A DNA stretch of 53,346 nt. Origin: a bacterium (GTDB taxonomy: Archaea > Thermoplasmatota > Thermoplasmata > Lutacidiplasmatales > UBA184). The stretch covers positions 1-53,346 of the forward strand of contig DAIDCO010000006.1 of the NCBI GenBank assembly GCA_027309555.1, written 5' to 3'. Of the stretch, positions 22,659 to 44,104 are shown in pieces; the first letter of the stretch is position 1, and each line of letters starts with the position of its first letter. The notes beneath the pieces are model-generated. The model ran no database searches. It worked only from the letters and a program-made list of their open reading frames with translations, and was not told where the DNA came from. The position numbers were made by a program, and so were the translations under genes.

Positions 22659-23444
22659 GTGCCTCGCGCTCCCCCCCCACTTTCAGCGCGTTTTCGACTG
22701 GATGGGCACCGGGCCCTCCTTACCGGCGCGGCGGGAGGGATCGGAGAGGCGATCGCCCGCACGTTCTCCGAGGCCGGGGCCTCGCTCGCGCTCGTCGACC
22801 GGGACGCCGTACGCCTCCGCGCCCTGGCCCGATCCCTGTCGACAGCGGGTCCCGCTCCGATCGTCGCCCCCGCCGACGTGACCCGCGTCGCCGAGGTCGC
22901 GCGCGCCGTCCGTACCGCCGCCGCGGGGCTCGGAGGCCTCGATATCCTGGTCAACGCCGCGGGCGTCACGGCGAAGGGCAGTGTGGCGACGACCGATCCG
23001 GCCGCGTGGCGCGCGCTCCTCGACATCAACCTCACGGGGACGTTCCTCGTCTGCCACGAGGCGGTCCCGCACCTGCGCCGGTCCAAGGACGCTGCGGTCG
23101 TGACGATCTCTTCGGTCTACAGTCTGATCGGGGGTCGGGACCGCGCGGCGTACTCGGCCTCGAAGGGCGGTCTCGACGCGCTGACCCGCTCCATGGCGGC
23201 CGACCTCGCGCCGGACGGGATCCGCGTGAACGCCGTGAACCCCGGGTTCATCCGCACCCCCATGACCGCGCCGACCCTCCGCGACCCGAAGGCGATGCGA
23301 TTCTTCCGTGCGGCGACGCTCCTACCGCGTCTCGGCGACCCCCAGGACGTCGCCGACGCCGTCCTCTACTTGGTCTCGCCCGCCTCCCGGTTCGTCACCG
23401 GGATCTGTCTCGCGCTGGATGGGGGTCGCGCGCTCGGTCGCTGA
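22659..23444 (+). CDS. short-chain dehydrogenase/reductase
   Basis: Motifs TGAAGGIGEAIA, NAAG and YSASK. The start is uncertain: GTG 22659 is chosen, but the ORF opens at 22590. Confidence 0.85.
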   Translation: MPRAPPPLSARFRLDGHRALLTGAAGGIGEAIARTFSEAGASLALVDRDAVRLRALARSLSTAGPAPIVAPADVTRVAEVARAVRTAAAGLGGLDILVNAAGVTAKGSVATTDPAAWRALLDINLTGTFLVCHEAVPHLRRSKDAAVVTISSVYSLIGGRDRAAYSASKGGLDALTRSMAADLAPDGIRVNAVNPGFIRTPMTAPTLRDPKAMRFFRAATLLPRLGDPQDVADAVLYLVSPASRFVTGICLALDGGRALGR

Positions 23445-23482
23445 CCCGCGCCCGGCGCTCGAGGTGAAAGGAGCTATCAGCG

Positions 23483-24958
23483 ATGCCGGTGCGTACGGAG
23501 GGTAGCCCGGTCGAGCGGATCGTGACGTGGGGCCTCGGCCTCCGCTGGACCGACGTTCCCGAGAACGTGCGCGAAATGGCCCGCGCGATCGCGACGGATT
23601 GTGTCGGGTGCGCCCTCGGTGGACTCGACTCCCGAAAGTCTCGAGCGGCGGCGACCTGGGCCCGCGGCTTCCCCCAGCGGGCCGGTGTCTCGATCCCAGG
23701 AAGTCCCGAGCGGCTGGCCCCCGGACCCGCCGCGTTCGCCTGGGGGGAGCTCGTCAACGCGCTCGAGTTCGATCCGGACCTCACTCCGTGTCACGTGGCC
23801 CCGTTCGTTCTGCCCGCGCCGTGGGTCGCCGCGGAGCTCGGCGAACGGTCCGGCCGCGACCTCCTGGTCGCGGTCGTGGTAGCCCACGAGGTCGCGGCGC
23901 AGATCGCCGGACGCATGCCGGGGCTCCGTTCGGTCGGTGGGAGCGCGCGGAGACCGACCTACGAGTTCCGCGAGCGCTGGAGCGCGTACACCGCCGGCAT
24001 CGTCGGGGCAGTCGTGGGTGCGGCGCGCCTCGCCCGGACCGAACCGGCCACGGTCCTCTCGGCCCTCGGGATCGCGGCCGGCCTCGCGCCCGTGCCCATC
24101 AGCTCGCGCTTCTTCTTCACCGCCCGGCCGTCGGACCTCAAGTACGGGTCCCCCGGATGGGTCAGCCTTGGCGCGGCGACCGCGCTCGAACTCGCCCGCG
24201 CCGGCTACCGGGGGGACCCCGACGCGCTGGTCGGTCCGAACGGGCTCCTGGCGATCCTCGGCAATGGTCCCGCGGATGTCGAGGGGGCCGCGGCCGACCT
24301 CGGTCACCACTGGCGGATCCTCGATTCCGTCTTCAAACGGTTCCCCACCGGGGGCGTGGGGCACGTCGGGCTCGACCTCTTCGAGCGATTCCTTTCCGAG
24401 ACCGGGACTGCCCCGGAGGCGATCGAGTCGGTCGAGGTGACCTCGGACCCGATCGTCGAGGTGCCTGTGCTCGCGAACCGGGAGGTCCGTGATCCGGTCG
24501 ATGCCCAGTTCGCCTTGGCCTGGGGATTCGCCCTTCTACCGTACTACGCCCCGGGCCCGGCCTGGCAGTCCTCCGCTGCGCTCCAGGACCCGCGGGTCTC
24601 CCGTCTTTTCGCCAAAGTACGGATCCGGGCCGACCCGTCCGTCGTCCGGGACCTCTACCGGCAGCTCGTCACGGAGAAGCTCCCGTACGTTCGGCGCCGG
24701 CCGACCCGCGTGCGCGTGCGGGCGGGCGGCCGGACGTGGGAGAGGTCCGACGCGGTCGCGGAAGGCTATCCCGAGCGGCCCATACCGCCGAACGACCGGC
24801 GCATCAAGTTCCTGCGGAACACGGCGGGCCACCTCCCGACCCGCACGGCCCACCAGCTCTTCACGCGCCTGCTCGCCCTCGACCGGGAGCCCACGCTCGC
24901 CCCGATCTCCGGACTCCTGCGGCGGGCGCGCGTTGCCCCGGTAGGGCGGGCCCCATGA
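23483..24958 (+). CDS. MmgE/PrpD-family protein (paralog 1)
   Basis: 491 aa. AAAGGAG lies 9 nt upstream. The N-terminus LRWTDVPENVREMARAIATDCVGCALGG is typical of 2-methylcitrate-dehydratase-fold proteins. Confidence 0.82.
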   Translation: MPVRTEGSPVERIVTWGLGLRWTDVPENVREMARAIATDCVGCALGGLDSRKSRAAATWARGFPQRAGVSIPGSPERLAPGPAAFAWGELVNALEFDPDLTPCHVAPFVLPAPWVAAELGERSGRDLLVAVVVAHEVAAQIAGRMPGLRSVGGSARRPTYEFRERWSAYTAGIVGAVVGAARLARTEPATVLSALGIAAGLAPVPISSRFFFTARPSDLKYGSPGWVSLGAATALELARAGYRGDPDALVGPNGLLAILGNGPADVEGAAADLGHHWRILDSVFKRFPTGGVGHVGLDLFERFLSETGTAPEAIESVEVTSDPIVEVPVLANREVRDPVDAQFALAWGFALLPYYAPGPAWQSSAALQDPRVSRLFAKVRIRADPSVVRDLYRQLVTEKLPYVRRRPTRVRVRAGGRTWERSDAVAEGYPERPIPPNDRRIKFLRNTAGHLPTRTAHQLFTRLLALDREPTLAPISGLLRRARVAPVGRAP

Positions 24959-26382
24959 ACGCCGACCTGATCGTTCGTGGGGGCCGCGTCGTCACCGACG
25001 GCTACCGCATGGAAGCGGACGTTGTCATCGAGGAGGGTCGCGTAACGGGACTCCTCCGCGACTCCTCCCACGTCGCGGCTGACCGGGTCGTGGATGCCCG
25101 GGGGAAGTTCGTGCTCCCCGGGCTCATCGACCCCCACACCCACTGGGGCGTGTTCAATTTGCCGGATCTCGATGCGTTCGCCGACCAGTGCGCGAGCGAG
25201 TCGGCCTCTTCGCTCGCGGGGGGAGTGACGACGGTGATGCACTGCGCGATGGACCAAGGCTCCTACCTCACCCACCTGCCCCGGAAACAAGAACGGATCG
25301 AATCGCGCGCCGGGGTCGACGTCGTCTTCTATCCGGCGCTGACGAGCCTCGCGCAGGTCGCGGAGGTCTCAGCGCTCGTCGCCCAGGGGGTCACCTCCTT
25401 CAAGATGTTCCTGAACGGCGACGCCTTCTACGGGATCGGCGAGAGCGCCTTCTACGCCGGGCTCCGCGAGGTCCTGCGGTGCGGCGGGACGCCCATGGTC
25501 CATTGCGAGTGGACGCCGCCGGCGCTCGACCTCCTTTCGCACGAGCTCGAGGCGGCGGGGAGAACCGACCTCAAAGCATGGGCCGACGCCCGCCCGAACG
25601 TCCTCGAGCTCACCGCCATGGAGCGGGTCTTCCGGCTGGCCGAGTCGCTCGCCGGACCCGTCTACATCGTCCACGTCTCGACGCGGGAAGGACCGGCGCT
25701 CGGAGCGTCGGCGCGCGCCCGCGGCGTCGAGGCGTACCTCGAAACCTGCCCCCACTACCTCGCGCTCGACTACACGATGCCGTCGATCGCCCAGCTCGGG
25801 AAGGTGAAGCCCCCGATCCGGGGACCGGCGGACCGGGAAGGCCTCTGGAGCGGTCTTCTCTCCGGACAGATCGACACGGTCGGTACCGACCACTGCACCC
25901 TGCTCCTCCGCGCCGCGAAGGTGGGGAAGGGGGACATCTGGAGCCAGCAGAACGGGTTCGCGGGGACCGAGACGATGCTGCCGATCCTTCTCAGCGAAGG
26001 CGTGCGGAAGCGGGGCCTGACCCTCGAGCGGCTCGTCGAGCTCACCTCGGCGAACGCGGCGCGGATCCACCGGATCCCGGGGAAGGGATCGATCCGGCCG
26101 GGATCGGATGCCGACCTCACGATCGTCGACCTCGAACGGACGGCGACCCTGAGCGCCGACACGTTGCACTCCGCGTGCGACTTTACCCTCTACGAAGGCT
26201 GGAAGGTCACCGGAATGCCGGTCCTGACCATCCGGGGCGGGGCGGTGGTGATGGAGGAGGGGACGATGCGCCGCGGTCCCCCCGGCCGAGTGCTCCGGAC
26301 CGCACGACGCGAGGCGTCGGCGACCGGCCGCGGCGCTTCCTCCCCGAGCCGCGTCGACGACCCCGCGCATCGGAGCCGATAA
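24955..26382 (+). CDS. cyclic amidohydrolase, dihydropyrimidinase/hydantoinase type (A1)
   Basis: ORF 24736..26382 trimmed to ATG 24955, an ATGA overlap with the PrpD-like stop. All metal-site elements are present: DPHTHWG, TSFKMF, MVHCE, YIVHVS, GTDHC. Confidence 0.9.
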   Translation: MNADLIVRGGRVVTDGYRMEADVVIEEGRVTGLLRDSSHVAADRVVDARGKFVLPGLIDPHTHWGVFNLPDLDAFADQCASESASSLAGGVTTVMHCAMDQGSYLTHLPRKQERIESRAGVDVVFYPALTSLAQVAEVSALVAQGVTSFKMFLNGDAFYGIGESAFYAGLREVLRCGGTPMVHCEWTPPALDLLSHELEAAGRTDLKAWADARPNVLELTAMERVFRLAESLAGPVYIVHVSTREGPALGASARARGVEAYLETCPHYLALDYTMPSIAQLGKVKPPIRGPADREGLWSGLLSGQIDTVGTDHCTLLLRAAKVGKGDIWSQQNGFAGTETMLPILLSEGVRKRGLTLERLVELTSANAARIHRIPGKGSIRPGSDADLTIVDLERTATLSADTLHSACDFTLYEGWKVTGMPVLTIRGGAVVMEEGTMRRGPPGRVLRTARREASATGRGASSPSRVDDPAHRSR

Positions 26383-26408
26383 AGCGACCGGCCGCTACGG
26401 GATGGATC

Positions 26409-27788
26409 GTGGGCGGCTACGACCGGGTACTTCGGGGCGGACGGGTGGTCACCTCGACCGCGGTGGTCGAGGCGGACGTGGCGATCGAGGGAGAGCACAT
26501 CGTCGCGGTGGCCAAGACGCTCTCCCCGCACGGTGCCTCGGTCCTTGACATCACGGGGAAGATCCTCCTTCCCGGCGGCATCGACCCGCACACGCACATC
26601 GCCTACGGGCAGCGGCCGTTCTCCCAGAACATCCGCTCGGAGACGGAATCGATGGCCGTCGGCGGCATCACGTCGGGGTTCTCCTTCGTCGGGCGGAAGG
26701 ACCCGTATTCCTCGCACCTGCCGGAGCTCATCCGCACGCTCGCGCAGGAGAGCCTGCTCGACGTCGGCTTTCATCCGATCATCGGGCGCCCCGAGCAGGA
26801 GGCGGAGCTCCCGAGGCTCCTCTCCGACCATGGGGTCGCGACGTTCAAGTTCTACCCGGCGACTCGGGCCGCGGAGATCTATCCCGAGGTCTGGGGGATC
26901 GATGACGGGCTCTTCTATCTCGCCCTCCAGCACATCCGCGCGCTCGGAGCCCCCGCGTCGGCGCTCGTGCATGCCGAAAACTGGGAGATGCATCCCTACC
27001 TGCGGGAGGAGATGATCCGGGCCGGCCGCACCGACCAGGCCGCCTACTGCGAGTCGCGTCCGCGGTTCTGCGAAGAGGACGGGGTCCTTCGGACGATCCA
27101 CTTCGCCGAGCGCCTCGGCTGCCCAACGTACATCGTGCACGTGTCGACGGCGGAGGGGGCCCGAATGATCGGGGAGGCCCAGCAGCGGGGCGTCCCCGTC
27201 ATCGGCGAGACCTGTCCGCAGTACCTGTGCTTCACACAGGACGACCGCTTCGAAGTGATCGCCCGAGTGAACCCTCCCCTCCGAAGCCGGTCGGACAACG
27301 AGGCCCTGTGGCAGGCGCTCGCTCGCGGCGACATCCGCTGCCTGGGCTCCGACCACATCCCGAACCGGACGAAGTCGATGGCGACCGACAATGTTTGGAC
27401 CACGAAAGTGGGCGGCTACCCCGGCTCGGGAGTGATCCTGCCGGTCCTGATGAGCGAAGGAGTTCGAAGGGATCGCATCGACCTCCCGACGGTCGCACGG
27501 GTCTCGAGCGAGAACGCGGCGCGCTGGTTCGGCCTCTACCCGCACAAGGGAGCGATCTTGCCCGGCGCCGACGCCGACCTCGTCGTCTGGGACCCCCGGC
27601 GCGAGGTCACCTACTCGCCCGAGCTCGGTCACCTCTCCTCGGACTTCTCCTGGTTCACCGGCCGCGTGTTCCACGGTTGGCCGTCCCACGTCTTCCGCCG
27701 GGGCGAGCTCGTGGTCGAGGAGAACGAACTGCGGGCGAAGCCCGGGAGCGGTCGGTACCTCAGAAGGCCCCTTCCGCCCGCGACCTGA
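26409..27788 (+). CDS. cyclic amidohydrolase, dihydropyrimidinase/hydantoinase type (A2)
   Basis: The C-terminal 459 aa of composite ORF 25188..27788, with a GTG 26409 start. Metal-site elements: DPHTHIAYG, ATFKFY, LVHAEN, YIVHVST, GSDHIP. Confidence 0.88.
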   Translation: MGGYDRVLRGGRVVTSTAVVEADVAIEGEHIVAVAKTLSPHGASVLDITGKILLPGGIDPHTHIAYGQRPFSQNIRSETESMAVGGITSGFSFVGRKDPYSSHLPELIRTLAQESLLDVGFHPIIGRPEQEAELPRLLSDHGVATFKFYPATRAAEIYPEVWGIDDGLFYLALQHIRALGAPASALVHAENWEMHPYLREEMIRAGRTDQAAYCESRPRFCEEDGVLRTIHFAERLGCPTYIVHVSTAEGARMIGEAQQRGVPVIGETCPQYLCFTQDDRFEVIARVNPPLRSRSDNEALWQALARGDIRCLGSDHIPNRTKSMATDNVWTTKVGGYPGSGVILPVLMSEGVRRDRIDLPTVARVSSENAARWFGLYPHKGAILPGADADLVVWDPRREVTYSPELGHLSSDFSWFTGRVFHGWPSHVFRRGELVVEENELRAKPGSGRYLRRPLPPAT

Positions 27789-29229
27789 CCGATCTGCGTC
27801 GGTCGGGACCCGCGGGCGTGCCGGGCGCGGGCCCCACGACCTCGGAGAGCTCGGCGAGGAGTCCCGCGATCCCGTCGTCCGGCTGTGCGTTCCACCACCG
27901 GTCCCATTCGCGGGCCGCTTCCGCGGCGAGGACGCGCGGAGAAAGCGAGCGGACGAACTTCTCCCGCACCTCCTCCACGGTCATCGGCCGCTCGGGGTCG
28001 CCCCAGCGGTGCCGGACCGTCGCCGTCGCGGGAGGCCGGTCCTTGAAGTGGATCGTGACCTCCGCGGTGGTCGTTCGCGGGTACTGACGGGTCGCCTTTG
28101 GATCCTCTCGGAGGAGTACCCGATGGGCCAGGGCCAGCACGAACGGGTCGGACCTACGCCCGGGGCGAAAGCGCTCGGGTCCGAGCGTTCCGTCCGAGAT
28201 GCCGGCGGCGATCACGTACCGCAGGCTCTGCGTCAGTTCGGCGAGCGGGCTCGAACGGACGGGCATCGAGCCGGTGAGCGAGAGCGCGGCTCGGTACGTT
28301 CGCACCTCGACCGACCGGACGTCCCGGGGGTCGGTCGGCCGGCCGGCGAGGATCTGACGGGCGGCGTCGAGCGGCCCGTGCGCATGCCGACCTCCTGGGT
28401 ACGGCTTCAGGTAGACCTCGTCGATCGCAAAAGGGTCCCGCGGACCGCGCTCGAGCCGTCGGAGGATCGGTCGCGGGGCCAGTTGGTCGAGCAAACCATG
28501 GGGCGGCGCGAAGCTGGTCCCATCTGCCCCGAGACCTTCCCGTGCCCAGAAGGCGGCGCGCAGCCCGAGCTCGGCCGCCATGCCGGCAACGAGCGGCTTC
28601 GCCGAGCTCCGCATCGCCTGCATGAGCGAGATCGGCACGGCGAAGGCGGCGGTCGAAACGGCGCGGCAGGTCGTAGCCAGGTCGCTCTCGAGCAGTCGAG
28701 AGGCGGCCACCGCGGCGCCGAGCGGCCCACAGGTACCGTCCGGGTAGAACCCGCCCTCGGTCTGCCCGGGAAAGAGCGCTGCGCCGAACCGAACGCTCAC
28801 CTCGTAGCCGGCCACGACCGCCGCGAGGACCGCGCCCAGAGAACGCCCGCCCGACTCTCCGACCGCGAGCCCCGCCGGGATCGCTCCCTCGCACGGGTGG
28901 AGCCCCGCGCGACGATGACCGTCCTGGGCCTCGAGTAGGTCGATATGGACCGCATTGTGGAACGCGGCGCCGAACGGAGCCGCCGAACGCCCCCAGCCGA
29001 GGATCGTCGCTCGCCCCTCGGGGAGCGGCCCGTTCGCCCGGCCGACCGATATTGCTTCGGGAAAGTCGGAAGCGGCGACCATGTTGCCGAGCGCATCCAA
29101 GAGACAGAGCCGGCTCTTTCGGAGGGTCCTCGAGGGCAGCCTCGCGAGCGTCAGGACGGACAGGGGACGCAGGAGCCGCTCGAGGATCCGGGCCCGTTGG
29201 TTTCCGGGAACGGGCTTCCGCGGGGCCAC
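27760..29229 (-). CDS. MmgE/PrpD-family protein (paralog 2)
   Basis: ORF 27760..29352 trimmed to GTG 29229, which lies 25 nt after a weak CGTTATGC box. Collinear with the PrpD fold along its whole length. Confidence 0.78.
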   Translation of the reverse strand: MAPRKPVPGNQRARILERLLRPLSVLTLARLPSRTLRKSRLCLLDALGNMVAASDFPEAISVGRANGPLPEGRATILGWGRSAAPFGAAFHNAVHIDLLEAQDGHRRAGLHPCEGAIPAGLAVGESGGRSLGAVLAAVVAGYEVSVRFGAALFPGQTEGGFYPDGTCGPLGAAVAASRLLESDLATTCRAVSTAAFAVPISLMQAMRSSAKPLVAGMAAELGLRAAFWAREGLGADGTSFAPPHGLLDQLAPRPILRRLERGPRDPFAIDEVYLKPYPGGRHAHGPLDAARQILAGRPTDPRDVRSVEVRTYRAALSLTGSMPVRSSPLAELTQSLRYVIAAGISDGTLGPERFRPGRRSDPFVLALAHRVLLREDPKATRQYPRTTTAEVTIHFKDRPPATATVRHRWGDPERPMTVEEVREKFVRSLSPRVLAAEAAREWDRWWNAQPDDGIAGLLAELSEVVGPAPGTPAGPDRRRSVRSRAEGAF

Positions 29230-29410
29230 GGCTCCGCCCGACTCGCGGGTCCCGCATAACGGGTTCGGCTGCGGGGCCTCTGAACCGATTCCGCGTAACA
29301 CCTTTCGGGCGGGGTCCGGCGCCCGGGGTGGGCCGGAATACATAACCCCCACTGAACTCTCTTATACCGGAACTCTTGTGCCGTGTCAAGGCTTCGCTCG
29401 CATCGACCCA

Positions 29411-29433: not shown

Positions 29434-29467
29434 GTCCGGTGGCGATGGAGGGCCGAGGAGAAAACGA

Positions 29468-30787
29468 ATGGGAACCAGTGAAGGAACCGCTTCGACCGGA
29501 TCGACCACGCCGAACGTCACTCCACCACCGAGGTCCGGGGGCCGCAGGACCATCGCGATCGCCGTCGCCGTGGTGCTCATCCTCGCGGCGCTCGGGGGGG
29601 GCTTGTACTACTACTACTCGACCCAGTCGAGCAGCAGCGGCAATTTCACCGTCGGCGTCGTCGGACCGATGACCGGAGCGCTCGGACCGGCCGGGACACC
29701 GTGGGCTGACGGAGTCACGGTCTGGGCGAATGCGATGAACGCCCAAGGAGGGGTCCACTTCAACGGCAAGACCCTGCACGTGGTCGTGAAGATGTACGAC
29801 GACCAGAGCAACCCGTCGCAGGCGATCCAGCTCGTGACGCAGGCGGTCAGTGGAGATCACGTCGACATGTTGATCACCGGCTTCCTGACGCCGGACACGG
29901 ACGCGATCGCGTCGACCGTTCAGACGCTGCAAGTGCCGATCGTCGCGAACGCGGCGGACGACCCCGAATTCCATGTGGGGAACCCGTACCTGTTCTCGAT
30001 CTACCCGACGACGGCCCAGCAGATGGAGTCGTTCGCGCAGTTCTTCGGCTCGTTGAGCCCGGTACCCACGAACGTCTCTACGCTTTACGCCAACGAGGAG
30101 GCCATGATCGGGCTGCTCGGGACCACCATTCACCTGATGGGTCCGAGTTACAACATCGTCTACAACCAGACGTACGACCCGACCACCCTCACGAGCTCGA
30201 GCGCGGACTCCTACCTGCTCTCGGCGAGCTCCCCGCACCCGAACATGCTGATGGTCTCGGACGAGTATCCGGGGAACGTCATCACCTGGATCCAGCAAAT
30301 GAAGTCGCTCAACGTCCGACCCTCGCTGATCTTCTCCGAGGACATGTGGGACGCCCCGTTCTTCATCAGCCAGCTCGGCGCCGACGCCAACGGCATCATC
30401 GGCCAGGACAACTGGGCCGCGAACATGACGAAGGCGGAGGCGAGCGGGAACTACGCGAACGCGACCTACTGGTATCAGCAGATGAACGCGACGTTCGGAC
30501 AGACGATCGCGATCAACCAGCTGCCGTACCAAGCGATCATGGCCGCGGAGGTACAGTTCGCCGCGATCCAGAAGGCCGGCGCCACTTCCGGCCCGGCGGT
30601 CGCGGCCGCGCTCGCGGGCCTGAACATGTCGACGGTCGATGGGCGCTTCGTGGCGAATCCGTTCGGGCTCGACATCGCCCGCGGTCCGTTCGTCATCCAG
30701 GTCCAGAACGGCCTACCGGAGATCATCGCTCCCGCCCAGTACGCGACGGCAACGCCGGTCTATCCGCTGCCGCCCACGTGGCCCTAG
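29468..30787 (+). CDS. ABC transporter substrate-binding protein, LivJ/type-I periplasmic-binding fold, TM-anchored
   Basis: ORF 28955..30787 trimmed to ATG 29468, with GGAGGAG 8 nt upstream. It has an N-terminal TM anchor (IAIAVAVVLILAALGG) and Ser-rich linker rather than a lipobox, then GVVGPMTGALGPAG typical of Leu/Ile/Val-binding-protein-like SBPs. Many sequons. Confidence 0.85.
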   Translation: MGTSEGTASTGSTTPNVTPPPRSGGRRTIAIAVAVVLILAALGGGLYYYYSTQSSSSGNFTVGVVGPMTGALGPAGTPWADGVTVWANAMNAQGGVHFNGKTLHVVVKMYDDQSNPSQAIQLVTQAVSGDHVDMLITGFLTPDTDAIASTVQTLQVPIVANAADDPEFHVGNPYLFSIYPTTAQQMESFAQFFGSLSPVPTNVSTLYANEEAMIGLLGTTIHLMGPSYNIVYNQTYDPTTLTSSSADSYLLSASSPHPNMLMVSDEYPGNVITWIQQMKSLNVRPSLIFSEDMWDAPFFISQLGADANGIIGQDNWAANMTKAEASGNYANATYWYQQMNATFGQTIAINQLPYQAIMAAEVQFAAIQKAGATSGPAVAAALAGLNMSTVDGRFVANPFGLDIARGPFVIQVQNGLPEIIAPAQYATATPVYPLPPTWP

Positions 30788-32725: not shown

Positions 32726-32774
32726 GCCGACGGGTCCCTGGAAACTCGGCCCGACCGCGCGAGCCCGCCGCGAT

Positions 32775-34198: not shown

Positions 34199-34220
34199 GG
34201 CGCGAGTATCGAGACGAGGG

Positions 34221-34227
34221 ATTTAAG
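34221..34227. promoter_or_regulatory. single shared TATA-like element ATTTAAG between divergent start codons 34198 (-) and 34255 (+)
   Basis: It lies 22 nt from the complement ATG and 27 nt from the + ATG. There is no other AT-rich element in the 56-nt gap. Confidence 0.5.
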
Positions 34228-34254
34228 CATCGAATGGCTGCCGAGGCGGTTTCC

Positions 34255-37243: not shown

Positions 37244-38526
37244 GCCGCCCCCAGACGCAGATCGAACGCACCCTCTCGCTCCATGCGACCGAGGCGCCGG
37301 GTCGCCCGGTCGAACCCGAGGAGTTCGTCGAGGTCGAGGTCGATCGCCTCGTCCTGCTCGATATGGCCGCGACCCATCCGGAGTTCCTCGCCCACCTGCC
37401 ACGCCGCGTTCACCGCCCCGAGCGGGTCGCCTGGGTCTTCGACCACCTCGTCCCCGCGCCGACCGTCGAGCTCGCGTCGGGCCTCGTGAAGCTCCGCGAG
37501 CTGGCCGCACGCTGGGGCATCACCTCGGTCTTCGACATCGGCCGGGGCGGCATTTCGCACCCGCTCATGGCCGAGAAGGGCTGGGTCCGCCCGGGCGAGA
37601 TCCTCGCGAACACCGATTCGCACACCTGCGCCGCGGGCGCGCTCGGCTGCGCCGGCCGGGGGGTCGGCATGCTCGAGGTCATGAGCATCCTCTCGACCGG
37701 ACGCACCTGGTTCCGGGTCGGGGAAACGGTCCGTGCGAGCCTCTCCGGACACCTCGCACCGGGGGTCGCGGGGAAGGACGTCTTCCTTTCGCTGGCCGGG
37801 GAGTTCGGCGCGATCCCCGGCCGGAACATCGAGTTCGCCGGTGACGGGATCGCCGGACTTCCGATTCCCACGCGCCAGGCGATCGCGACGATGTGCGCGG
37901 AGATCAGCGCCGAGTTCGCCCTCTTCCCCCCCGACGCCCGCGCGCTCGACTACGTCCGCGCCCGCGTGCCGGCCGACGAACCCCTCGCCCCGGTCCGCGC
38001 CGACCCGGACGCGTCGTACGCCGCAGAGTGGCGGGTCGACCTCTCGGGGGTCGAGCCGCTCGTCGCGCTCCCGAACCGGGTCGCCCGGAACGTCCGGCTC
38101 GTCTCCGAGGTCGCGGGGGTGACCATCACGCGCGCGGTGGTCGGCTCGTGCGCGAACGGCACGATCGAGGACCTGGAAGCGGTCGCGAACGTGCTCCGCG
38201 GCCGCCGCGTGCATCCCGGCGTCGTTTTCACGGTGACCCCCACCACCTCCGACGTCATGGCGGAGGCCGCCCGTCGGGGGCTGATCGACACGATCGTCGC
38301 GGCGGGCGCGCTCGTCACGAGCCCGACGTGCGGCGCCTGCTTCGGGGGCCACATGGGGGTCCTCGGCGACGGGGAGGTCTGCGTGACGAGCACGACTCGC
38401 AATTTCCAAGGACGGATGGGCTCGCCGAACGCGAAGATCTACCTTGCATCGAGCGCGACCGTGGCCGCGAGCGCCGTCGCGGGTTGTCTCGCCGACCCGC
38501 GGGGACTCGAGGGGAAGCGCCCGTGA
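37240..38526 (+). CDS. aconitase-family dehydratase large subunit (LeuC/HacA/DmdA-like)
   Basis: ATG 37240 overlaps the lyase stop (ATGA). Motif NTDSHTC and Fe-S cysteines in GSCANG and SPTCGACFG. Confidence 0.88.
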   Translation: MSRPQTQIERTLSLHATEAPGRPVEPEEFVEVEVDRLVLLDMAATHPEFLAHLPRRVHRPERVAWVFDHLVPAPTVELASGLVKLRELAARWGITSVFDIGRGGISHPLMAEKGWVRPGEILANTDSHTCAAGALGCAGRGVGMLEVMSILSTGRTWFRVGETVRASLSGHLAPGVAGKDVFLSLAGEFGAIPGRNIEFAGDGIAGLPIPTRQAIATMCAEISAEFALFPPDARALDYVRARVPADEPLAPVRADPDASYAAEWRVDLSGVEPLVALPNRVARNVRLVSEVAGVTITRAVVGSCANGTIEDLEAVANVLRGRRVHPGVVFTVTPTTSDVMAEAARRGLIDTIVAAGALVTSPTCGACFGGHMGVLGDGEVCVTSTTRNFQGRMGSPNAKIYLASSATVAASAVAGCLADPRGLEGKRP

Positions 38527-39008
38527 AGCTCGTCGGCCGCGCCTGGGTCTTCGACGACGACATCAACACCGACCTCCTCTATCCCGCGGCCTGTTTCCGC
38601 CTCCCGGTGGAGGAGCGACCGGCGCTCACGATGAGCGCGAACCGGCCGGGGTGGTCGCGGGAGGTCCGCCCCGGCGACCTTCTCGTCGCGGGAACGAACT
38701 TCGGAACCGGATCCTCCCGACCCGCCGCGGACAACCTGAAGGCGCTCGGGGTCGCGGGCGTCGTCGCGGAGTCGATCAACGGCCTCTTCTTCCGCAATGC
38801 GATCAACACGGGACTCCCCGTCCTCGAGGCGCCGGGCGTGCGCGCGTTCGTACGCGAAGGCACCCGGGTCGAGATCGACCTCGACACCGGAGCGATCCGG
38901 TCGGAGGGACGGACCCTGAACGTGCGGCCGCTGCCCGGCTTTCTCGCCCGGATCCTCGCGGAGGGGGGGATCCTCCCCCGGCTCCGCAAGGAAGGCTATA
39001 TCGACTAG
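38523..39008 (+). CDS. aconitase-family dehydratase small subunit (LeuD/HacB/DmdB-like)
   Basis: GTG 38523 overlaps the large-subunit stop (GTGA). GTNFGTGSSRPAA occupies the position of the LeuD G-x-NFGCGSSRE-H-A loop but is diverged. Confidence 0.85.
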   Translation: MKLVGRAWVFDDDINTDLLYPAACFRLPVEERPALTMSANRPGWSREVRPGDLLVAGTNFGTGSSRPAADNLKALGVAGVVAESINGLFFRNAINTGLPVLEAPGVRAFVREGTRVEIDLDTGAIRSEGRTLNVRPLPGFLARILAEGGILPRLRKEGYID

Positions 39009-39037
39009 CGCGGTTCCGCCGCGTGCGAGGGATCCGG

Positions 39038-39730
39038 ATGCGGCATCCATGGGAATCGATGATGGACGGGCTCGATCGCGAGGTCGTCACGGCCGCCGGA
39101 TACGGAAAGGAGCGGCCGCTGGGAAAGGCCCCGGTCCTTCTCGTGATCGACGCGCAGTACAACTACGTCGGAGAGGACCTCCCGATCCTCGATTCGATTC
39201 GGAAGTTCCCGACGAGCGTCGGCCACGCGGCGTACGAGGCCTTGCCGCAGGTACTCGCCCTCGTCCGGGCCTTCCGGGAACGGAAGCGTCCGGTGATCTT
39301 CACGACCGTCGCTCCGAAGGAGGCGCTGCTCCCCTTCTCGATCAGCGGCCGCGTCCACGCCGACCGCAAGTCGGAAACGCTGGTCGCCGGCCACCGCGGC
39401 ACCGAGATCGTCGAGGCGCTGCGACCCGAGCCCGGCGAGGTCGTTATCGACAAGGCGTTCGCGAGCGCCTTCCTCGGGACCCCGCTCGCGACGATCCTCA
39501 CGCTGCAGCGGGCCGATACCGTGGTGGTCTGCGGCGGCACGACCAGCGGCTGCGTGCGCGGGACCGCGGTCGACGCGGCGGGTCTCGGGTACCATGTCGT
39601 GGTCGCCGAGGATGCGGTCTTCGACCGCATCACGCTCTCGCACGCCGCGAGCCTGCTCGACCTCTGGATGAAGTACGCGAACGTGTATCCCGCCGAGCGG
39701 GTCCTCGAGTGGGTCCGCTCGCTCCCATGA
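39038..39730 (+). CDS. isochorismatase-family cysteine hydrolase (Iso2; N-carbamoylsarcosine amidase / maleamate amidohydrolase-like)
   Basis: ORF trimmed to ATG 39038. Catalytic elements: LLVIDAQ, VIDKAFASAFLGT, CGGTTSGCVRGTAVDA. Confidence 0.85.
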   Translation: MRHPWESMMDGLDREVVTAAGYGKERPLGKAPVLLVIDAQYNYVGEDLPILDSIRKFPTSVGHAAYEALPQVLALVRAFRERKRPVIFTTVAPKEALLPFSISGRVHADRKSETLVAGHRGTEIVEALRPEPGEVVIDKAFASAFLGTPLATILTLQRADTVVVCGGTTSGCVRGTAVDAAGLGYHVVVAEDAVFDRITLSHAASLLDLWMKYANVYPAERVLEWVRSLP

Positions 39731-41112
39731 GCGACCTCCTCCTCAAGAACGCCCGCCTCGTTTTCCCGCACCGCGGGGTCGTGGACGGCGAGATCGGGAT
39801 CTCAGGCGGCCGCATCGACTCGGTCGGAAAGGACCTCGGGAGGGCCGACCACGAGATCGACCTTCACGGCGCGCTCGTCGGCCCCGGGATCGTCGACCCG
39901 CACACGCACCTCGGGATCTACCGTGCGGCCCACGAGGACGCCCGGACCGAATCCGAATGCGCGGTGCGCGGCGGCGTCACGACGATGGTGACCTACTGGC
40001 GCGTCGGGGAACCGTACACCGACGGGCTCGTGGCCTACGGACGCGCCTTCGGGGAGTTCCGCGAGCGGCTAGAGGGGCAGATGCACACCGACTACGCGGT
40101 CAACCTCGGCATGCTGACCCGCGCGCACCTCGGCGAGGTCCCCGACCTCGTCCACCGACAAGGCGTGACGACCCTCAAGTACTTCGCGCACTACGAGGGC
40201 CGCGCGGACATCGGCCACGACCTCGATACGGGGTACTTCTTCGCGCTCGCGGAAGAGGTCGCTCGCCTCTCCCCGGCGGTGCCGGCGATCCGGTTGAGCG
40301 TCCACAGCGAGGACCCCTACGTGGTCCGGGAGGCTACCGACCGGGAAAAGAAGGCCGGGGGAAACGACCTCGAGGCCTACCGTCGCGCCCGGCCCGAGCT
40401 CGCGGAAGCCATAGCGGTCGACCGCCTCGGCGAAGTGGCCCTCGCGACCCGGGCGCCGATGATCCTCCCGCACGTGAGCTCCGCCATCGGCTACGCCCGC
40501 GCGCACGAGTTCGTCGCGCGGGGCGCGGACCTGACGATCGAGACGAGCCTCCACTACCTCACGCTGACGACCGAGAGCCCGGCCGGGATCCTTGCGAAGG
40601 TGAATCCCGCGGTCCGACGGGCCGAGGACGTCGAGGCGCTCTGGTCGGCCGTCGCCGCCGGCGGGCTTGGTTGCATTGGAAGCGACCACGCCTCGAATCT
40701 CCGGCAAGAGAAGTCGGAGCTCTGGAGCGCGAAACCGGCGTTCGCGGGCACGGGTCTCCTGTTGCCGCTCCTCTTCGAGGAAGGGGTCGTGCGGCGCCGG
40801 CTCCTCTCGCCGGAATCACTCTGGGGGATCCTCGCCGAGAACAACGCGCGGGCCCATGGGCTCTTTCCCCGGAAGGGGGCCCTCGTCCCCGGCGCCGACG
40901 CCGACTTGGTGGTCCTGGGGAAGCTCTCGGAGCCGCGCCGTGTGACGGTCGAGTCGGTCCACTCGGCCAGCGACTACTCCCCGTACGAGGGCCGGGAGCT
41001 CCACCACGTCCCCACCCATACCTTCGTGCGGGGCGAGCTCGTGGCCGACGCGGAGGGGGTCCGTGGGCCAGGCCATGGGGCGTACCTCCACCGTCCGCTC
41101 GGCCTCGACTGA
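39727..41112 (+). CDS. cyclic amidohydrolase, dihydropyrimidinase/hydantoinase type (A3)
   Basis: ATG 39727 overlaps the Iso2 stop (ATGA). Metal-site elements: DPHTHLG, TTLKYF, LSVHSED, ILPHVSS, GSDHAS. Confidence 0.9.
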   Translation: MSDLLLKNARLVFPHRGVVDGEIGISGGRIDSVGKDLGRADHEIDLHGALVGPGIVDPHTHLGIYRAAHEDARTESECAVRGGVTTMVTYWRVGEPYTDGLVAYGRAFGEFRERLEGQMHTDYAVNLGMLTRAHLGEVPDLVHRQGVTTLKYFAHYEGRADIGHDLDTGYFFALAEEVARLSPAVPAIRLSVHSEDPYVVREATDREKKAGGNDLEAYRRARPELAEAIAVDRLGEVALATRAPMILPHVSSAIGYARAHEFVARGADLTIETSLHYLTLTTESPAGILAKVNPAVRRAEDVEALWSAVAAGGLGCIGSDHASNLRQEKSELWSAKPAFAGTGLLLPLLFEEGVVRRRLLSPESLWGILAENNARAHGLFPRKGALVPGADADLVVLGKLSEPRRVTVESVHSASDYSPYEGRELHHVPTHTFVRGELVADAEGVRGPGHGAYLHRPLGLD

Positions 41113-41133
41113 GCTCGGGCGGCCCGGGGGACC

Positions 41134-42513
41134 CTACGCCGCGCGGGCGGGAACGAACTGCCCGCGCCCGGCGAGGTCCGGCACCTCGCCCGGGAAGACC
41201 CCTTCGGCGACGGTGACCCCGCGGCTCACGGTCCGGACCGGGACGCCCGTGAGCTCCCAGCCTTCGAACATCGTGAACTCGCTGTGATGGTGCAGCCGGT
41301 CGTTCCGGATCGTCGTCGTCGCCTTCGGGTCGACCAGCACGAAGTCGGCGTCCGCCCCGAGCTGTAGGACGCCCTTCCGGGGATAGTAGCCGAACCGGCG
41401 GGCCGGACCCTCGGCGAGGAGGTAGAGCAGTCGATCCCAGTCGAGGCGCCCGGCAAACGCCTCCCGGAGCAGTACGGGGTACATCGTCTCGCTGCCGGGG
41501 AAGCCGGGCGGGATCGAGAAGATGTCCGCCGCGCCGGGGGCCTTCTCCGCGCTCGGGGCCGCGTGGTCGGAAGCGAGGAAGTCCACGGTGCCGTCCCGGA
41601 CCCCGGCCCACATCGCGTCGACCTCGGCGCGGCTGCGGAGCGGTGGGTTGACCTTCGCGTAGGGACCCCGATCGCGGTAGGCCGACGTGTCGAAGAAGAG
41701 GTAATGCGGGCACGTCTCGACCGAGAGGTCGGCCCCGGCGGCGCGCGCGGCGCGGACGGTGGGGAGCGTGAACCCGCTGCTCAGGTGGACGATGTGTACG
41801 GCCGCGCCGGCGGCGCGCCCGAGGCGAGCGACGCGACCGACCGCGTCGTCTTCGGCGACGGTCGGTCGGGAGTCGGTGTAGACGTCGGGCGTCGTCCGCC
41901 CGGCCTCTTTCAGCCGGCGGGTTGCCTCCGCGACGATCGAGGGGTTCTCCGCGTGGACTTCGAGGGGGGCGCCGGTCCCGGCGAGCCGCTCGGCGACCGC
42001 AAGGATCGTCGCGTCGTCGCACGCGGTGTACTCTCCGACGGGGTTCCACCCCAGGTACACCTTCACGCCGGCGACCCCGGCGCGGACGAGCGCCGGGATC
42101 TCCGCGAGGTTCCCGGCGCAGCCACCGCCATGCACCCCGAAATCCACGACCGAGCTCGCCCGGCCGAGGGCGACCTTCGCCTCGAGCGACGGGAGCGTGA
42201 GCGTGGGAGGGCAGTGCTCGGGGGTCGACGCGGCCTGCTCGACGAACGTCGTAACTCCCCCCGACGCGCAGGCCCGGCTCCCCGTGCCGATGTCCGTGCG
42301 GTCGGGGCGCCCGTAGGTGAAGTGGGTGTGGGTGTCGACGGCCCCCGGCAAGAGCAGAGCGCCGCGGGCATCGATCGTGCGGTCCGCGACGGGGAGGTGG
42401 GCATCCGTACAGATCCGAACGACGCGACCCGCTTCGACCGCGATCCCGGCGGAGACCCACTCCCCCCGCCACCGTAGGCGGGCGGAGCGGACCGTGAGGT
42501 CGACGGGGCTCAC
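41134..42513 (-). CDS. cyclic amidohydrolase, allantoinase/dihydroorotase/L-hydantoinase type (A4)
   Basis: ORF 41134..42666 trimmed to GTG 42513, which overlaps the upstream stop (GTGA). Metal-site elements: DTHTHFT, AGVKVY, LEVHAEN, HIVHLSS, ASDHAA. Confidence 0.88.
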   Translation of the reverse strand: MSPVDLTVRSARLRWRGEWVSAGIAVEAGRVVRICTDAHLPVADRTIDARGALLLPGAVDTHTHFTYGRPDRTDIGTGSRACASGGVTTFVEQAASTPEHCPPTLTLPSLEAKVALGRASSVVDFGVHGGGCAGNLAEIPALVRAGVAGVKVYLGWNPVGEYTACDDATILAVAERLAGTGAPLEVHAENPSIVAEATRRLKEAGRTTPDVYTDSRPTVAEDDAVGRVARLGRAAGAAVHIVHLSSGFTLPTVRAARAAGADLSVETCPHYLFFDTSAYRDRGPYAKVNPPLRSRAEVDAMWAGVRDGTVDFLASDHAAPSAEKAPGAADIFSIPPGFPGSETMYPVLLREAFAGRLDWDRLLYLLAEGPARRFGYYPRKGVLQLGADADFVLVDPKATTTIRNDRLHHHSEFTMFEGWELTGVPVRTVSRGVTVAEGVFPGEVPDLAGRGQFVPARAA

Positions 42514-43349
42514 GCCGGCGCTCCCCCGAGACGCTCGACGACCGTGCCGCCGGGGTTCGTCCACCCCGAACGGAAGTAGAACGCTGACTCGATGTGACGC
42601 GGGGCGAGAGGCAGGAGCTCCTCGTTTTCGGCAGGGTAGAGCTTCAGTTCGCCGCTCCCCTTCCAAACGTCGGTGACGACCCGGCCGGTCGTTTGGACTC
42701 GGACGAGCTCATGGACCGAAGGGGGGCGGCGCGGGTCGACGTTCGGAAGGTAACGGATCCCGAAGTACGTCCCGAGGCGGGGCAATTCCTCGGCCCGCGA
42801 GGCGCTCTCGAGCGTCACCCCCGCGAAAAGGATCCGCTCTCCGTGGCGAGAGAGCACCCCTGCGAGGCGGGCGCCGGGCCCGATCGGGGGCAATTTCGGG
42901 TGCAGAGGGTGAAGCCGCGTCATGCGGACCTGCGCGACCTTCTTCGGCCAGCCGTTGAGCCAGCCCCGCGCCATCGACCAGTCGTGGTCGGTCCAGATGA
43001 AGGGCAAGTAGACGCCGGCCTCCCCCCGGTAGCGGCAGGAGACGGTGACGATCGCTTCGCCGTACTGGGTGGCCTCGGGCTGGCGGTAGGCGAGGTCCGG
43101 GTCGCCGTCGCTGACCGAGATGACCTCCGTGACGCGGGCGGTCACCCGGTCGGGCTCGGGCCCCGGCTCGAGGGGAGGCGGGAGGACCCGGCGCACGGCT
43201 TCGGGGTCGGCCCGGTAGACGACCTGGATCACATCGGAGGCAAAGTGCCACGGCGGGTGGTCGACGATCCCGCTCTTCCCTTCGGGTCCGAACGGGGGCG
43301 TATACCCCGGAGCGGTCAACGGAGGGGTCCCGGGAGGGGATGCGTTCAT
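42510..43349 (-). CDS. acetoacetate decarboxylase (ADC)-family protein
   Basis: The C-terminal 279 aa of composite ORF 42510..44399. The N-terminal pattern PPWHFASDVIQVVYRADPEAVRRVLPPPLEP and the overall size fit PF06314-type proteins, judged from memory. Confidence 0.7.
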   Translation of the reverse strand: MNASPPGTPPLTAPGYTPPFGPEGKSGIVDHPPWHFASDVIQVVYRADPEAVRRVLPPPLEPGPEPDRVTARVTEVISVSDGDPDLAYRQPEATQYGEAIVTVSCRYRGEAGVYLPFIWTDHDWSMARGWLNGWPKKVAQVRMTRLHPLHPKLPPIGPGARLAGVLSRHGERILFAGVTLESASRAEELPRLGTYFGIRYLPNVDPRRPPSVHELVRVQTTGRVVTDVWKGSGELKLYPAENEELLPLAPRHIESAFYFRSGWTNPGGTVVERLGGAPA

Positions 43350-43360
43350 GGAACTCGCCG

Positions 43361-44104
43361 CTAGGCGGGCGCTCCGGCCGCCGGTTCCGCCCGGCCGAGG
43401 TAGGCTTCGACCACGGCCGGGTCCTGGCTCGCCGCACGCACGTCGCCATTGAACAGGAGCTGGCCGTGGTGGAGGACGAGGACCCGGTCGATCAGCTGGA
43501 AGAGCGACTCTACCACGTGCTCGGTGACGAGCAACGTGATCCCGCGGGCGTGGATGCGTCGGATGATCTCGACGATCTCGCTCAGCTCGGCGGGGTTGAG
43601 ACCCGCCATGACCTCGTCCAGCAGCAAGAGCTCGGGAGAGGCCGCGAGCGCCCGGGCGACCTCGAGCCGCTTGCGCCCCGCGAGGGTGAGCTCGTTCGAC
43701 CGGGCCGAGGCGCGGTCCGCGAGGTCGGTGACCGCGAGGACCTCGTCGACCGTGAGCGGCGGCAGACCGGCCCGCGGGCGGCGGGCCCCGAAGAGCGCAC
43801 CGACACGGACGTTCTGCTCCACCGTGAGGTCCGGGAACGCCTGGGCGAGCTGGAAGGTCTGAACGAGGCCACGGTGGCAACGGCGGTGCGGCGCCCAACG
43901 GGTGACGTCGGTTTCCTGGAATACGATCCGTCCGCTCGTAGGAGGGATCATGCCGGACAAGAGCGCGAACAGCGTGGTCTTCCCGGCCCCGTTCGGACCG
44001 ATCAGCCCGAGGATCTCCCCTTCGGCAATGTCGAAGGAGACGTTCGAGACGGCCATCACTCCCGCGAACCGCTTGGTGAGGCCTTCCACCGTGAGCAACG
44101 TCAC
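43361..44104 (-). CDS. ABC transporter ATP-binding protein, LivG-like
   Basis: 247 aa. Motifs: LLTVEGLTKRFAGVMAVSNVSF, Walker A GPNGAGKTT, LLLLDEVMAGL. GTG 44104 lies 25 nt after a CCTTTAAG box. Confidence 0.9.
   Translation of the reverse strand: MTLLTVEGLTKRFAGVMAVSNVSFDIAEGEILGLIGPNGAGKTTLFALLSGMIPPTSGRIVFQETDVTRWAPHRRCHRGLVQTFQLAQAFPDLTVEQNVRVGALFGARRPRAGLPPLTVDEVLAVTDLADRASARSNELTLAGRKRLEVARALAASPELLLLDEVMAGLNPAELSEIVEIIRRIHARGITLLVTEHVVESLFQLIDRVLVLHHGQLLFNGDVRAASQDPAVVEAYLGRAEPAAGAPA

Follow-up and report, generated by a model that had tools for sequence, protein, structure and literature searches.

A conserved gene cluster, probably of an uncultured Thermoplasmata archaeon, that may serve the hydrolytic catabolism of a carboxylated cyclic amide, imide or ureide

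The window analysed here is a stretch of 53,346 nucleotides (nt; contig DAIDCO010000006.1, assembly GCA_027309555.1), within which positions 22659-44104 are exactly filled by 20 genes in a codon-usage gene call, from the start of a short-chain dehydrogenase/reductase (SDR) gene to the start of a minus-strand ATPase gene. Judging from its conservation, this cluster of about 21 kb and six transcription units is a real and selectively maintained catabolic gene set, its grouping not being due to chance. In fact, its genes are conserved together in eight or more related contigs or metagenome-assembled genomes labelled Thermoplasmata archaeon (L003-L012, L091-L093; contigs and loci are given by L numbers throughout), and all the orthologous pairs between the window and four relatives show dN/dS values of 0.06-0.35, indicating purifying selection. 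With moderate confidence, the protein families point to the catabolism of one compound, or of a small family of related compounds, bearing carboxylates and a cyclic amide, imide or ureide ring, by a route free of oxygenases.

Gene content of the cluster

The genes, arranged by transcription unit, with the evidence for each assignment in brackets, are the following.

Unit SDR-PrpD1-A1-A2, + strand
22659..23444, +, SDR oxidoreductase, opening the SDR-PrpD1-A1(-A2) operon (Pfam adh_short_C2, 223 bits)
23483..24958, +, PrpD1, a very divergent MmgE/PrpD-family protein (Pfam N- and C-terminal domains)
24955..26382, +, A1, cyclic amidohydrolase of hydantoinase/dihydropyrimidinase type (Pfam, NCBIfam)
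26409..27788, +, A2, cyclic amidohydrolase (Pfam, NCBIfam, PDB)
Unit PrpD2, - strand
27760..29229, -, PrpD2, MmgE/PrpD-family protein, convergent with A2 (Pfam, 137 + 105 bits)
Unit SBP-permease-permease, + strand
29468..30787, +, substrate-binding protein (SBP), Peripla_BP_6 (Pfam, translation of the N-terminus, orthologues)
30849..31739, +, ATP-binding cassette (ABC) permease, LivH-like (BPD_transp_2)
31736..32725, +, ABC permease, LivM-like (BPD_transp_2)
Unit ATPase-Iso1, - strand
32775..33539, -, ABC ATPase, LivF-like (ABC_tran)
33572..34198, -, Iso1, isochorismatase-fold cysteine hydrolase (amidase) (Pfam, 152 bits)
Unit CoA-transferase-AH2-lyase-LeuC-LeuD-Iso2-A3, + strand
34255..35457, +, family III CoA-transferase (CoA_transf_3, 368 bits)
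35454..36272, +, AH2, Amidohydro_2 protein of the BB4693 subfamily (Pfam, 133 bits)
36347..37243, +, C-C lyase of the isocitrate lyase (ICL)/phosphoenolpyruvate (PEP) mutase family, with KRCGH loop (Pfam PEP_mutase/ICL, PDB)
37240..38526, +, LeuC-like [4Fe-4S] (de)hydratase, large subunit (Pfam Aconitase)
38523..39008, +, LeuD/DmdB-type small subunit with a non-canonical recognition loop (Pfam Aconitase_C)
39059..39730, +, Iso2, cysteine hydrolase of the N-carbamoylsarcosine amidase/maleamate amidase subgroup (Pfam, PDB)
39709..41112, +, A3, cyclic amidohydrolase (Pfam, NCBIfam)
Unit A4-ADC-ATPase, - strand
41134..42513, -, A4, cyclic amidohydrolase closest to allantoinase and dihydroorotase (Pfam, NCBIfam)
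42510..43319, -, ADC-family protein of the aldolase-dehydratase/MppR subgroup (Pfam ADC, 180 bits)
43361..44104, -, ABC ATPase, LivG-like (ABC_tran + BCA_ABC_TP_C)

At about 70% GC, most frames in a raw list of open reading frames (ORFs) are spurious, and a plain GC3 filter missed genes; the gene call was therefore based on codon log-odds, with the window itself as training set, and returned 48 genes, of which numbers 20-39 form the cluster. Many gene junctions, including PrpD1/A1, CoA-transferase/AH2 and A4/ADC, show a 4-nt overlap. The CoA-transferase gene probably starts at 34255 (34234 being the alternative), and its orthologues are 400 amino acids (aa) long. The divergent gap separating it from Iso1 (34199-34254) is very short and contains the motif ATTTAAG, which precedes the start of Iso1 by some 25 nt and the ATG at 34255 by some 30 nt and would fit an archaeal TATA-like box shared by both genes and leaderless transcripts.

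Families were assigned with Pfam and NCBIfam profiles and by comparison with PDB entries, each bit score being set against the curated equivalog cutoff. An earlier note on this DNA, made from the letters alone, had named four hydantoinase-type enzymes, two isochorismatase-type enzymes, an Amidohydro_2 protein, two MmgE/PrpD proteins, a LeuCD-like hydratase, the KRCGH lyase, a family III CoA-transferase, an ADC-family protein, an SDR and one importer, and Pfam confirmed all of these families. The SBP start that it had placed at 29468 also stands, as it adds an N-terminal membrane anchor and agrees with orthologues of 439 aa. Moreover, no cluster enzyme reaches an NCBIfam equivalog cutoff, the models passed being of broad subfamily level only (LeuC PRK00402, hacA_fam, the LeuD/DmdB small subunit and SDR glucose 1-dehydrogenase). 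By these cutoffs the enzymes are neither housekeeping nor CHARACTERISED, and the contention that they fall outside the clades of characterised housekeeping enzymes was upheld by the NCBIfam scores. Catalytic motifs are intact across the enzymes, AH2 excepted (no HxH), and in terms of motif conservation the cluster proteins look catalytically competent.

Conservation and origin of the cluster

The gene order of the window is repeated in L003/L004 with L091, in L010 with L012, and in L092, at 62-93% amino-acid identity, the flank of L092 stopping inside the CoA-transferase gene, with only the first half of the cluster visible. The L005/L006 pair keeps the importer and the core, without A1, A2 and both PrpD genes. 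In L007/L008 and L093 (GCA_027378585.1) the order is rearranged (A4-ADC-ATPase, A2, PrpD2, SDR-PrpD1-A1, importer), with all the parts contiguous. The SDR gene stays upstream of PrpD1 in L091, L092 and L093, and the amidohydrolases, where present, have fixed partners, namely A1-PrpD1, A2-PrpD2, A3-Iso2 and A4-ADC; A2 adjoins PrpD2 also in the rearranged loci L007 and L093. The two blocks which the earlier note had singled out, PrpD-A1-A2 and lyase-LeuCD-Iso-A3, proved to be co-conserved in several species-level relatives and stay together after the sub-operon shuffling of L093. The closest homologues of AH2, 82-93% identical, lie on long contigs, and the four best AH2 loci in the species-representative genome collection are all labelled Thermoplasmata archaeon, under different isolate names. 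Iso2 homologues bear this label as well, and one related contig comes from a soil metagenome.

The GC fraction is 0.65-0.73 inside the cluster versus 0.68-0.72 outside it, no tRNA was found in the window, and no integrase or transposase family was present among the genes scanned with Pfam and NCBIfam. Therefore, the term 'island' used in the earlier note holds for the clustering, which is kept in relatives, and fails for a horizontal insert: the cluster appears to be vertically maintained and bears no mark of recent horizontal insertion. Going by the labels which depositors gave to the related genomes, and by the style of the SBP anchor, the source of the window is probably a Thermoplasmata archaeon, uncultured and of high GC (about 70%). 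The approximately 28 window genes outside the cluster belong, by Pfam and NCBIfam, to domain-neutral metabolic families and are taxonomically undiagnostic; the membrane-anchored SBP and the TATA-like ATTTAAG element would be compatible with an archaeal host. According to a published description, soil Thermoplasmata of the order RBG-16-68-12 ('Ca. Angelarchaeales') live as aerobic heterotrophs, and their genomes encode a keto-acid dehydrogenase complex and numerous Liv-type transporters (PMC9038741), two traits which resemble the content of the window.

Importer and enzymes

A single five-part Liv-type importer is encoded in the cluster, its two ATPase genes sitting in different units. Its SBP carries an N-terminal membrane anchor followed by a Ser/Thr-rich linker.

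The four cyclic amidohydrolases are Amidohydro_1 proteins of 459-475 aa, with their top scores against dihydropyrimidinase, allantoinase and ErtD models and a mutual identity of only 34-36%. Scores against the D-hydantoinase model TIGR02033 (cutoff 393) are 299 bits for A1 and 321 bits for A2, whose best PDB match is the D-hydantoinase 1yny (255 bits); the best NCBIfam model of A3 is ErtD (208 bits versus 600), and A4 reaches 317 bits versus 358 with the allantoinase model TIGR03178. Overall, A1-A4 remain below the hydantoinase, allantoinase and dihydroorotase (PRK02382) cutoffs. The binuclear metal set is complete in all four: D59/H61/H63, the carbamylated lysine K150, H183, H240 and D312-H313 (A1 numbering).

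In alignments with solved structures, the catalytic Lys and Cys are preserved in Iso1 and Iso2 alike, and the Asp in Iso1. The two isochorismatase-fold proteins are accordingly classed as cysteine amidases and not as isochorismatases. In Iso1, D14, K115 and C148 align with the residues of 3hu5, giving the Asp-Lys-Cys triad; its nearest relatives are generic cysteine hydrolases, RutB and biuret hydrolase, at about 79 bits versus cutoffs of 370-378 for the BiuH and RutB models. K132 and C165 of Iso2 align with N-carbamoylsarcosine amidase, and its catalytic Asp would be that of 'VIDAQ', inside the Pfam match. The PDB matches of Iso2 are 26st (111 bits), 4l07 (104), 1nba (72) and 3ot4/3uao (70), where 4l07 and 4l08 are presumably maleamate amidases (Ami). 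These scores against structures of maleamate amidohydrolase (NicF/Ami) and N-carbamoylsarcosine amidase amount to only 70-111 bits, and the pathway context of those enzymes is not in the cluster. Bacterial Iso2 homologues (42-52% identity) often bear the automatic Joint Genome Institute (JGI) label 'maleamate amidohydrolase'.

Concerning CoA activation, the best NCBIfam models of the CoA-transferase are succinate-glutarate CoA-transferase (310 bits versus 750) and succinyl-CoA:mesaconate CoA-transferase (246 versus 700). Its partner AH2 has no NCBIfam match, and its nearest PDB entry is the uncharacterised protein BB4693 (3irs, 79 bits). Fold neighbours of its AlphaFold model (predicted local distance difference test score, pLDDT, 93) are headed by 3irs, followed by non-oxidative hydroxybenzoate decarboxylases, LigW, ACMSD, LigJ and LigI, none of them nearer than 3irs. 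AH2 shares its fold with the Amidohydro_2 decarboxylases and hydratases (ACMSD, LigW, gamma-resorcylate decarboxylase, LigJ), without their HxH/ExH ligands. This is a property of the BB4693-type subfamily (3876 homologues at E<=1e-20), in which D5 and N9 are invariant and HxH is missing in all 27 aligned sequences, and whose genes habitually adjoin those of CoA ligases or transferases.

The LeuC-like subunit passes PRK00402 (414 versus 385) and hacA_fam (386.4 versus 385.7) and holds the three cluster ligands Cys304, Cys364 and Cys367, and the small subunit passes the LeuD/DmdB-family model TIGR02087 (139 versus 109). The criteria for canonical isopropylmalate isomerase or homoaconitase are missed (TIGR02083, 335 versus 611; TIGR02084, 102 versus 246). 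In the small subunit GSSRP replaces GSSRE and the recognition loop reads LLYPAACFRLP, both features being kept in all the Thermoplasmata copies and absent from the bacterial ones; the GSSRE motif and the recognition loop play a role in substrate choice (PMC7308503).

The neighbouring lyase has its KRCGH at residue 120, together with DGD and LEDQ for the Mg-binding residues (DxD and E). Its PDB matches are the carnation petal death protein (PDP, 211 bits), the Aspergillus 2,3-dimethylmalate lyase (DML, 193) and methylisocitrate lyases (181-192), and it scores 284 bits against prpB TIGR02317, with a cutoff of 354. Its motif NMVEGGKTP is of the PDP/DML type, as against NITEFGATP of methylisocitrate lyase, and is shared, like IFPGAGAR, with bacterial orthologues of 52-57% identity.

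PrpD1 has no NCBIfam match and only weak PDB matches (at most 31 bits), to cis-aconitate decarboxylase (IRG1/CAD) and iminodisuccinate epimerase (IDS-epimerase); it is confined to the lineage, where 18 homologues are 56-83% identical to it, as against 29% for the next one. For PrpD2, IDS-epimerase and cis-aconitate decarboxylase are matched at about 57-61 bits, and PrpD equivalogs at 23-33 bits, with cutoffs of 458-950. The ADC-family protein, with a PKK motif at residues 125-127, matches 4zbo (139 bits), MppR 4jm3 (131) and 5upb (130). A second ADC paralogue, about 25% identical, stands at the cluster edge in relatives (L003/L004 19126-19875; L005/L006 2874-3710; L092 8190-8993); it was looked for in the window and is absent. 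The SDR just reaches the glucose 1-dehydrogenase subfamily model (217.4 versus 215) and no equivalog.

Counterparts in bacteria

For AH2 homologues of 45-53% identity, the sample comprised 76 bacterial genome loci, and neighbours were counted within 10 kb. Half of the loci (38/76) have an Iso or CoA-transferase homologue, with isochorismatase-fold homologues in 25, family III CoA-transferases in 15 and Liv-type permeases in 15; hydantoinase-like, lyase, LeuCD or PrpD homologues occur in 3-7 of the 76 each. In L051, L074, L088 and a Roseomonas plasmid, the neighbour of AH2 is not a transferase but an AMP-forming CoA ligase, and therefore AH2, CoA activation and a cysteine hydrolase can be regarded as a conserved module. 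The plasmid contexts of AH2 homologues again show just this triad, with an adenylate-forming enzyme next to AH2 and the cysteine hydrolase.

In a similar way, Iso2 homologues of 42-47% identity were sampled in five bacterial contexts (L094-L098), the protein of L094 being listed under Mailhella massiliensis and L095 (GCA_030418165.1) being Ureibacillus aquaedulcis. PrpD-family genes and an Amidohydro_1 protein are found in all five, LeuC and/or LeuD in four, a Liv-type ABC system in four and a family III CoA-transferase in two. L094 encodes a 57% identical lyase with NMVEGGxTP and IFPGxxxR motifs, and L097 additionally a PrpF-family isomerase. The pairing of Iso2 with an amidohydrolase is seen in L028, L051, L088, L094, L095 and L097, and the regulators of the bacterial versions are of IclR or GntR type. 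The second recurring bacterial module thus consists of PrpD, Iso2, a cyclic amidohydrolase and LeuCD, joined in some cases by the lyase, the CoA-transferase or a Liv importer. As far as found, the archaeal cluster would be an expanded fusion of two widespread and apparently undescribed modules, also present in cultured strains.

Proposed pathway and alternative explanations

On this basis, the following route can be proposed. The compound would be imported by the membrane-anchored SBP and the Liv-type ABC system, its ring or rings would be opened hydrolytically by the binuclear-metal enzymes A1-A4, and the remaining amide or carbamoyl nitrogen would be released as ammonia by Iso1 and Iso2. The PrpD proteins and the LeuCD-like hydratase could then eliminate, isomerise and hydrate a substituted maleate- or aconitate-type acid to a substituted malate, which the KRCGH lyase would split into a 2-oxo acid (or glyoxylate) and a carboxylic acid. 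The CoA-transferase, with AH2, may activate an acid intermediate or product, and the ADC-family aldolase-dehydratase may deal with a 2-oxo-enoate side product. The families are consistent with the sequence of import, ring opening, deamidation, (de)hydration and cleavage which had been read from them at the outset, whereas we infer the order of the steps, the substrate and the roles of PrpD1, PrpD2, AH2, ADC and SDR from sequence only.

As regards the substrate, the cluster holds no oxygenase or hydroxylase, and the compound should therefore be hydrolysable as it stands. LeuCD enzymes of the aconitase superfamily typically act on substituted maleates. Together with the similarity of Iso2 to amidases of maleamate and carbamoyl compounds, and with that of the lyase to 2-alkylmalate lyases, this makes substituted cyclic imides of the maleimide, succinimide or glutarimide type our leading guess, with carboxylated hydantoins or dihydropyrimidines as the putative second choice. 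Candidates would be the alkyl- or carboxyalkyl-maleimides from tetrapyrrole breakdown, such as methyl-ethyl-maleimide and hematinic acid. A hematinic acid route would end in pyruvate and glutarate, and the best, sub-threshold, model of the CoA-transferase is that of succinate-glutarate CoA-transferase. Another candidate would be a glutarimide, e.g. 2,6-dioxopiperidine-4-carboxylate from citrazinate.

Several observations weigh against this reading. The SBP has no informative or ligand-bound relative in the PDB (at most 26 bits), and no regulator is conserved with the archaeal cluster. AH2 has no HxH anywhere in its sequence, the N-terminus reading AIDVVANL. PrpD1 and PrpD2 are too divergent for a reaction to be assigned. 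In the lyase, the preference for PDP/DML over the methylisocitrate lyases is marginal (211/193 versus 181-192 bits), and an Arg occupies the site of the methylisocitrate lyase Arg. A flavin oxidoreductase (FAD_binding_2, old yellow enzyme or nitroreductase type) accompanies all five bacterial Iso2 contexts, and none is present in the archaeal cluster. Finally, the two modules occur separately in bacteria and, given also the loss of A1, A2 and the PrpD genes in L005/L006, a single linear pathway is therefore not established.

The last point leads to the main competitor, namely that at least two small catabolic operons, independent of each other and serving different substrates, are co-located, with, for instance, AH2, the CoA-transferase and Iso1 acting on a carboxylic acid amide, and PrpD, Iso2, amidohydrolase, LeuCD and lyase acting on another compound. 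The presence of six transcription units, the finding of the two modules apart in bacteria, the retention of all the rest by L005/L006 after losing A1, A2 and both PrpD genes, and the four ancient amidohydrolase paralogues, each with a different partner, all favour such an arrangement. Nevertheless, the units are adjacent in every relative sampled, despite reshuffling; the single importer, with ATPase genes in different units, ties those units together; and L051, L074 and L095 each join elements of both modules in one bacterial locus. Independent operons are considered rather unlikely.

A variant of housekeeping metabolism, in which a reductive pyrimidine or hydantoin route would feed a methylcitrate-cycle-like trio of PrpD, aconitase and PrpB for propionyl-CoA disposal, is much less probable. 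It could account for the top scores of the A proteins against dihydropyrimidinase and allantoinase models, for the 284 bits of the lyase against prpB and for the presence of PrpD- and aconitase-family proteins; however, all the relevant scores lie below the curated cutoffs (PrpD2 at about 30 versus 458-950, PrpD1 unmatched), LeuD has a non-canonical loop, the lyase carries a PDP/DML-type motif and not that of methylisocitrate lyase, and none of the 20 genes matches the families of methylcitrate synthase, dihydropyrimidine dehydrogenase, beta-ureidopropionase or aminotransferases. Hardly credible at all is a biosynthetic cluster, e.g. for a non-proteinogenic amino acid or a small heterocyclic metabolite: the 150 bits of the ADC-family protein against the model of the enduracididine enzyme MppR, which could suggest it, are far under its cutoff (380), the cluster has a binding-protein-dependent importer of its own, no match to non-ribosomal peptide synthetase (NRPS), polyketide synthase (PKS), ATP-grasp, aminotransferase or exporter families appears among the 20 genes, and the IclR/GntR regulators and uptake transporters of the bacterial counterparts are typical of catabolism.

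Comparison with known systems

The catabolism of a carboxylated ring amide, imide or ureide, as favoured here, can be set beside several known routes. The earlier note knew of no characterised route with this combination of enzymes, and our literature searches agree, as no described pathway containing it was found. One of the closest schemes is cyclic-imide metabolism (imidase, half-amidase, dicarboxylate), the biochemistry of which reportedly comes from Blastobacter sp. A17p-4 and pseudomonads. The two have in common ring opening by a cyclic amidohydrolase, an ammonia-releasing amidase and the entry of a maleate- or succinate-type acid into central metabolism, the comparison being one of schemes; they differ in that the half-amidase of the cluster has the isochorismatase fold, the ring-opening paralogues are four, and the PrpD/LeuCD/ICL-type trio and the AH2/CoA-transferase pair are additional.

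The last steps of nicotinate fermentation in Eubacterium barkeri are carried out by dimethylmaleate hydratase DmdAB and 2,3-dimethylmalate lyase Dml. In the cluster, likewise, a LeuCD-type hydratase stands beside an ICL/PEP-mutase lyase, and its small subunit passes the LeuD/DmdB model. However, none of the 20 genes matches the enamidase, B12 mutase, methylitaconate isomerase or molybdenum hydroxylase families, and the dimethylmalate lyase close to the cluster lyase is the solved fungal enzyme. The methylcitrate cycle shares three protein families with the cluster (PrpD, aconitase, PrpB) as well as the order of dehydration, rehydration and cleavage, but the PrpD and PrpB cutoffs are widely missed, there is no methylcitrate synthase, and the cluster genes sit among ring and amide hydrolases.

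NicF/Ami and N-carbamoylsarcosine amidase provide the best PDB matches of Iso2, with Lys and Cys aligned, whereas the cluster lacks the dioxygenase and deformylase of the nicotinate pathway and the genes of the creatinine pathway. Similarly, among characterised enzymes A1 and A2 come nearest to D-hydantoinase and dihydropyrimidinase, of the hyu hydantoin and reductive pyrimidine routes, but no racemase, carbamoylase of M20 or nitrilase type, or dihydropyrimidine dehydrogenase is encoded in the cluster.

In Mycobacterium sp. INA1, isonicotinate and citrazinate are said to be degraded via citrazyl-CoA, 2,6-dioxopiperidine-4-carboxyl-CoA and tricarballylate; no report of the genes was found in our literature search. 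By pure analogy, CoA activation, reduction, imide hydrolysis, deamidation and tricarboxylate handling each have a candidate family in the cluster. An FAD_binding_2 enzyme, of the family to which the tricarballylate dehydrogenase TcuA belongs, is present in two of the bacterial versions, whereas the archaeal cluster has neither this enzyme nor a molybdenum hydroxylase.

Neighbouring genes in the window

Upstream of the cluster, 15878-18906 encodes a D-2-hydroxyacid dehydrogenase, a thiamine pyrophosphate (TPP) enzyme similar to benzoylformate decarboxylase (339 bits versus 493) and a NUDIX gene, a neighbourhood repeated in contig L001. Farther away, 4283-14938 is a cell-envelope glycosylation cluster with two GDP-mannose-dehydratase/epimerase-type genes, five glycosyltransferases, a DUF2079 membrane protein and a GHMP kinase, for which the best model is D-glycero-D-manno-heptose 7-phosphate kinase HddA (267 bits versus 600). 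An FMN-dependent 2-hydroxyacid dehydrogenase/oxidase lies at 3007-4128, 18.5 kb from the cluster; a homologue 52% identical to it is found in L093 (19091-20173), about 2 kb past the last cluster gene and after two kinase genes.

On the other side, 44849-46290 holds a SufR-like/ArsR-type helix-turn-helix (HTH) regulator, which scores 104 bits with the SufR model (cutoff 179) and shows translational coupling with a second SDR gene. This regulator is not beside the cluster in L010, and therefore it is probably not the regulator of the cluster. Next come 1.09 kb without a confident gene (46291-47379). ORF 46358-47365, within this stretch, has poor codon usage and matches the queuosine-synthesis family QueA over only 50 residues at its C-terminus; it is possibly what remains of a gene. 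Finally, 49259-53344 (- strand) encodes a 2-oxoacid dehydrogenase complex in the order E2 (truncated where the window stops), E1-alpha, E3 and LipB, no E1-beta being seen in the window. A homologue 80% identical to this E2 gene comes directly after the cluster ATPase in L010, and the complex could conceivably be linked to the 2-oxo acid that the lyase would release.

Implications

In a wider, and unlikely, interpretation, the cluster would represent the expanded archaeal form of a widespread undescribed pathway, also present in Mailhella, Ureibacillus, Rhizobiaceae and others, which would mineralise substituted cyclic imides hydrolytically with new specificities of PrpD, LeuCD and ICL/PEP-mutase enzymes and with a metal-ligand-deficient Amidohydro_2 protein. 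As for the reading favoured here, it is directly testable, the core being present in cultured bacteria; although orphan catabolic clusters are numerous, this one is conserved in both archaea and bacteria. If right, this reading would provide the first functions for several large orphan subfamilies, namely the BB4693-type Amidohydro_2 proteins, the divergent MmgE/PrpD proteins, the PDP/DML-like lyase orthogroup and the GSSRP variant of LeuD. Moreover, it would mean a complete, oxygen-independent recycling of ring-amide carbon and nitrogen in abundant uncultured soil archaea, with counterparts in gut relatives of sulfate reducers and in soil Firmicutes.

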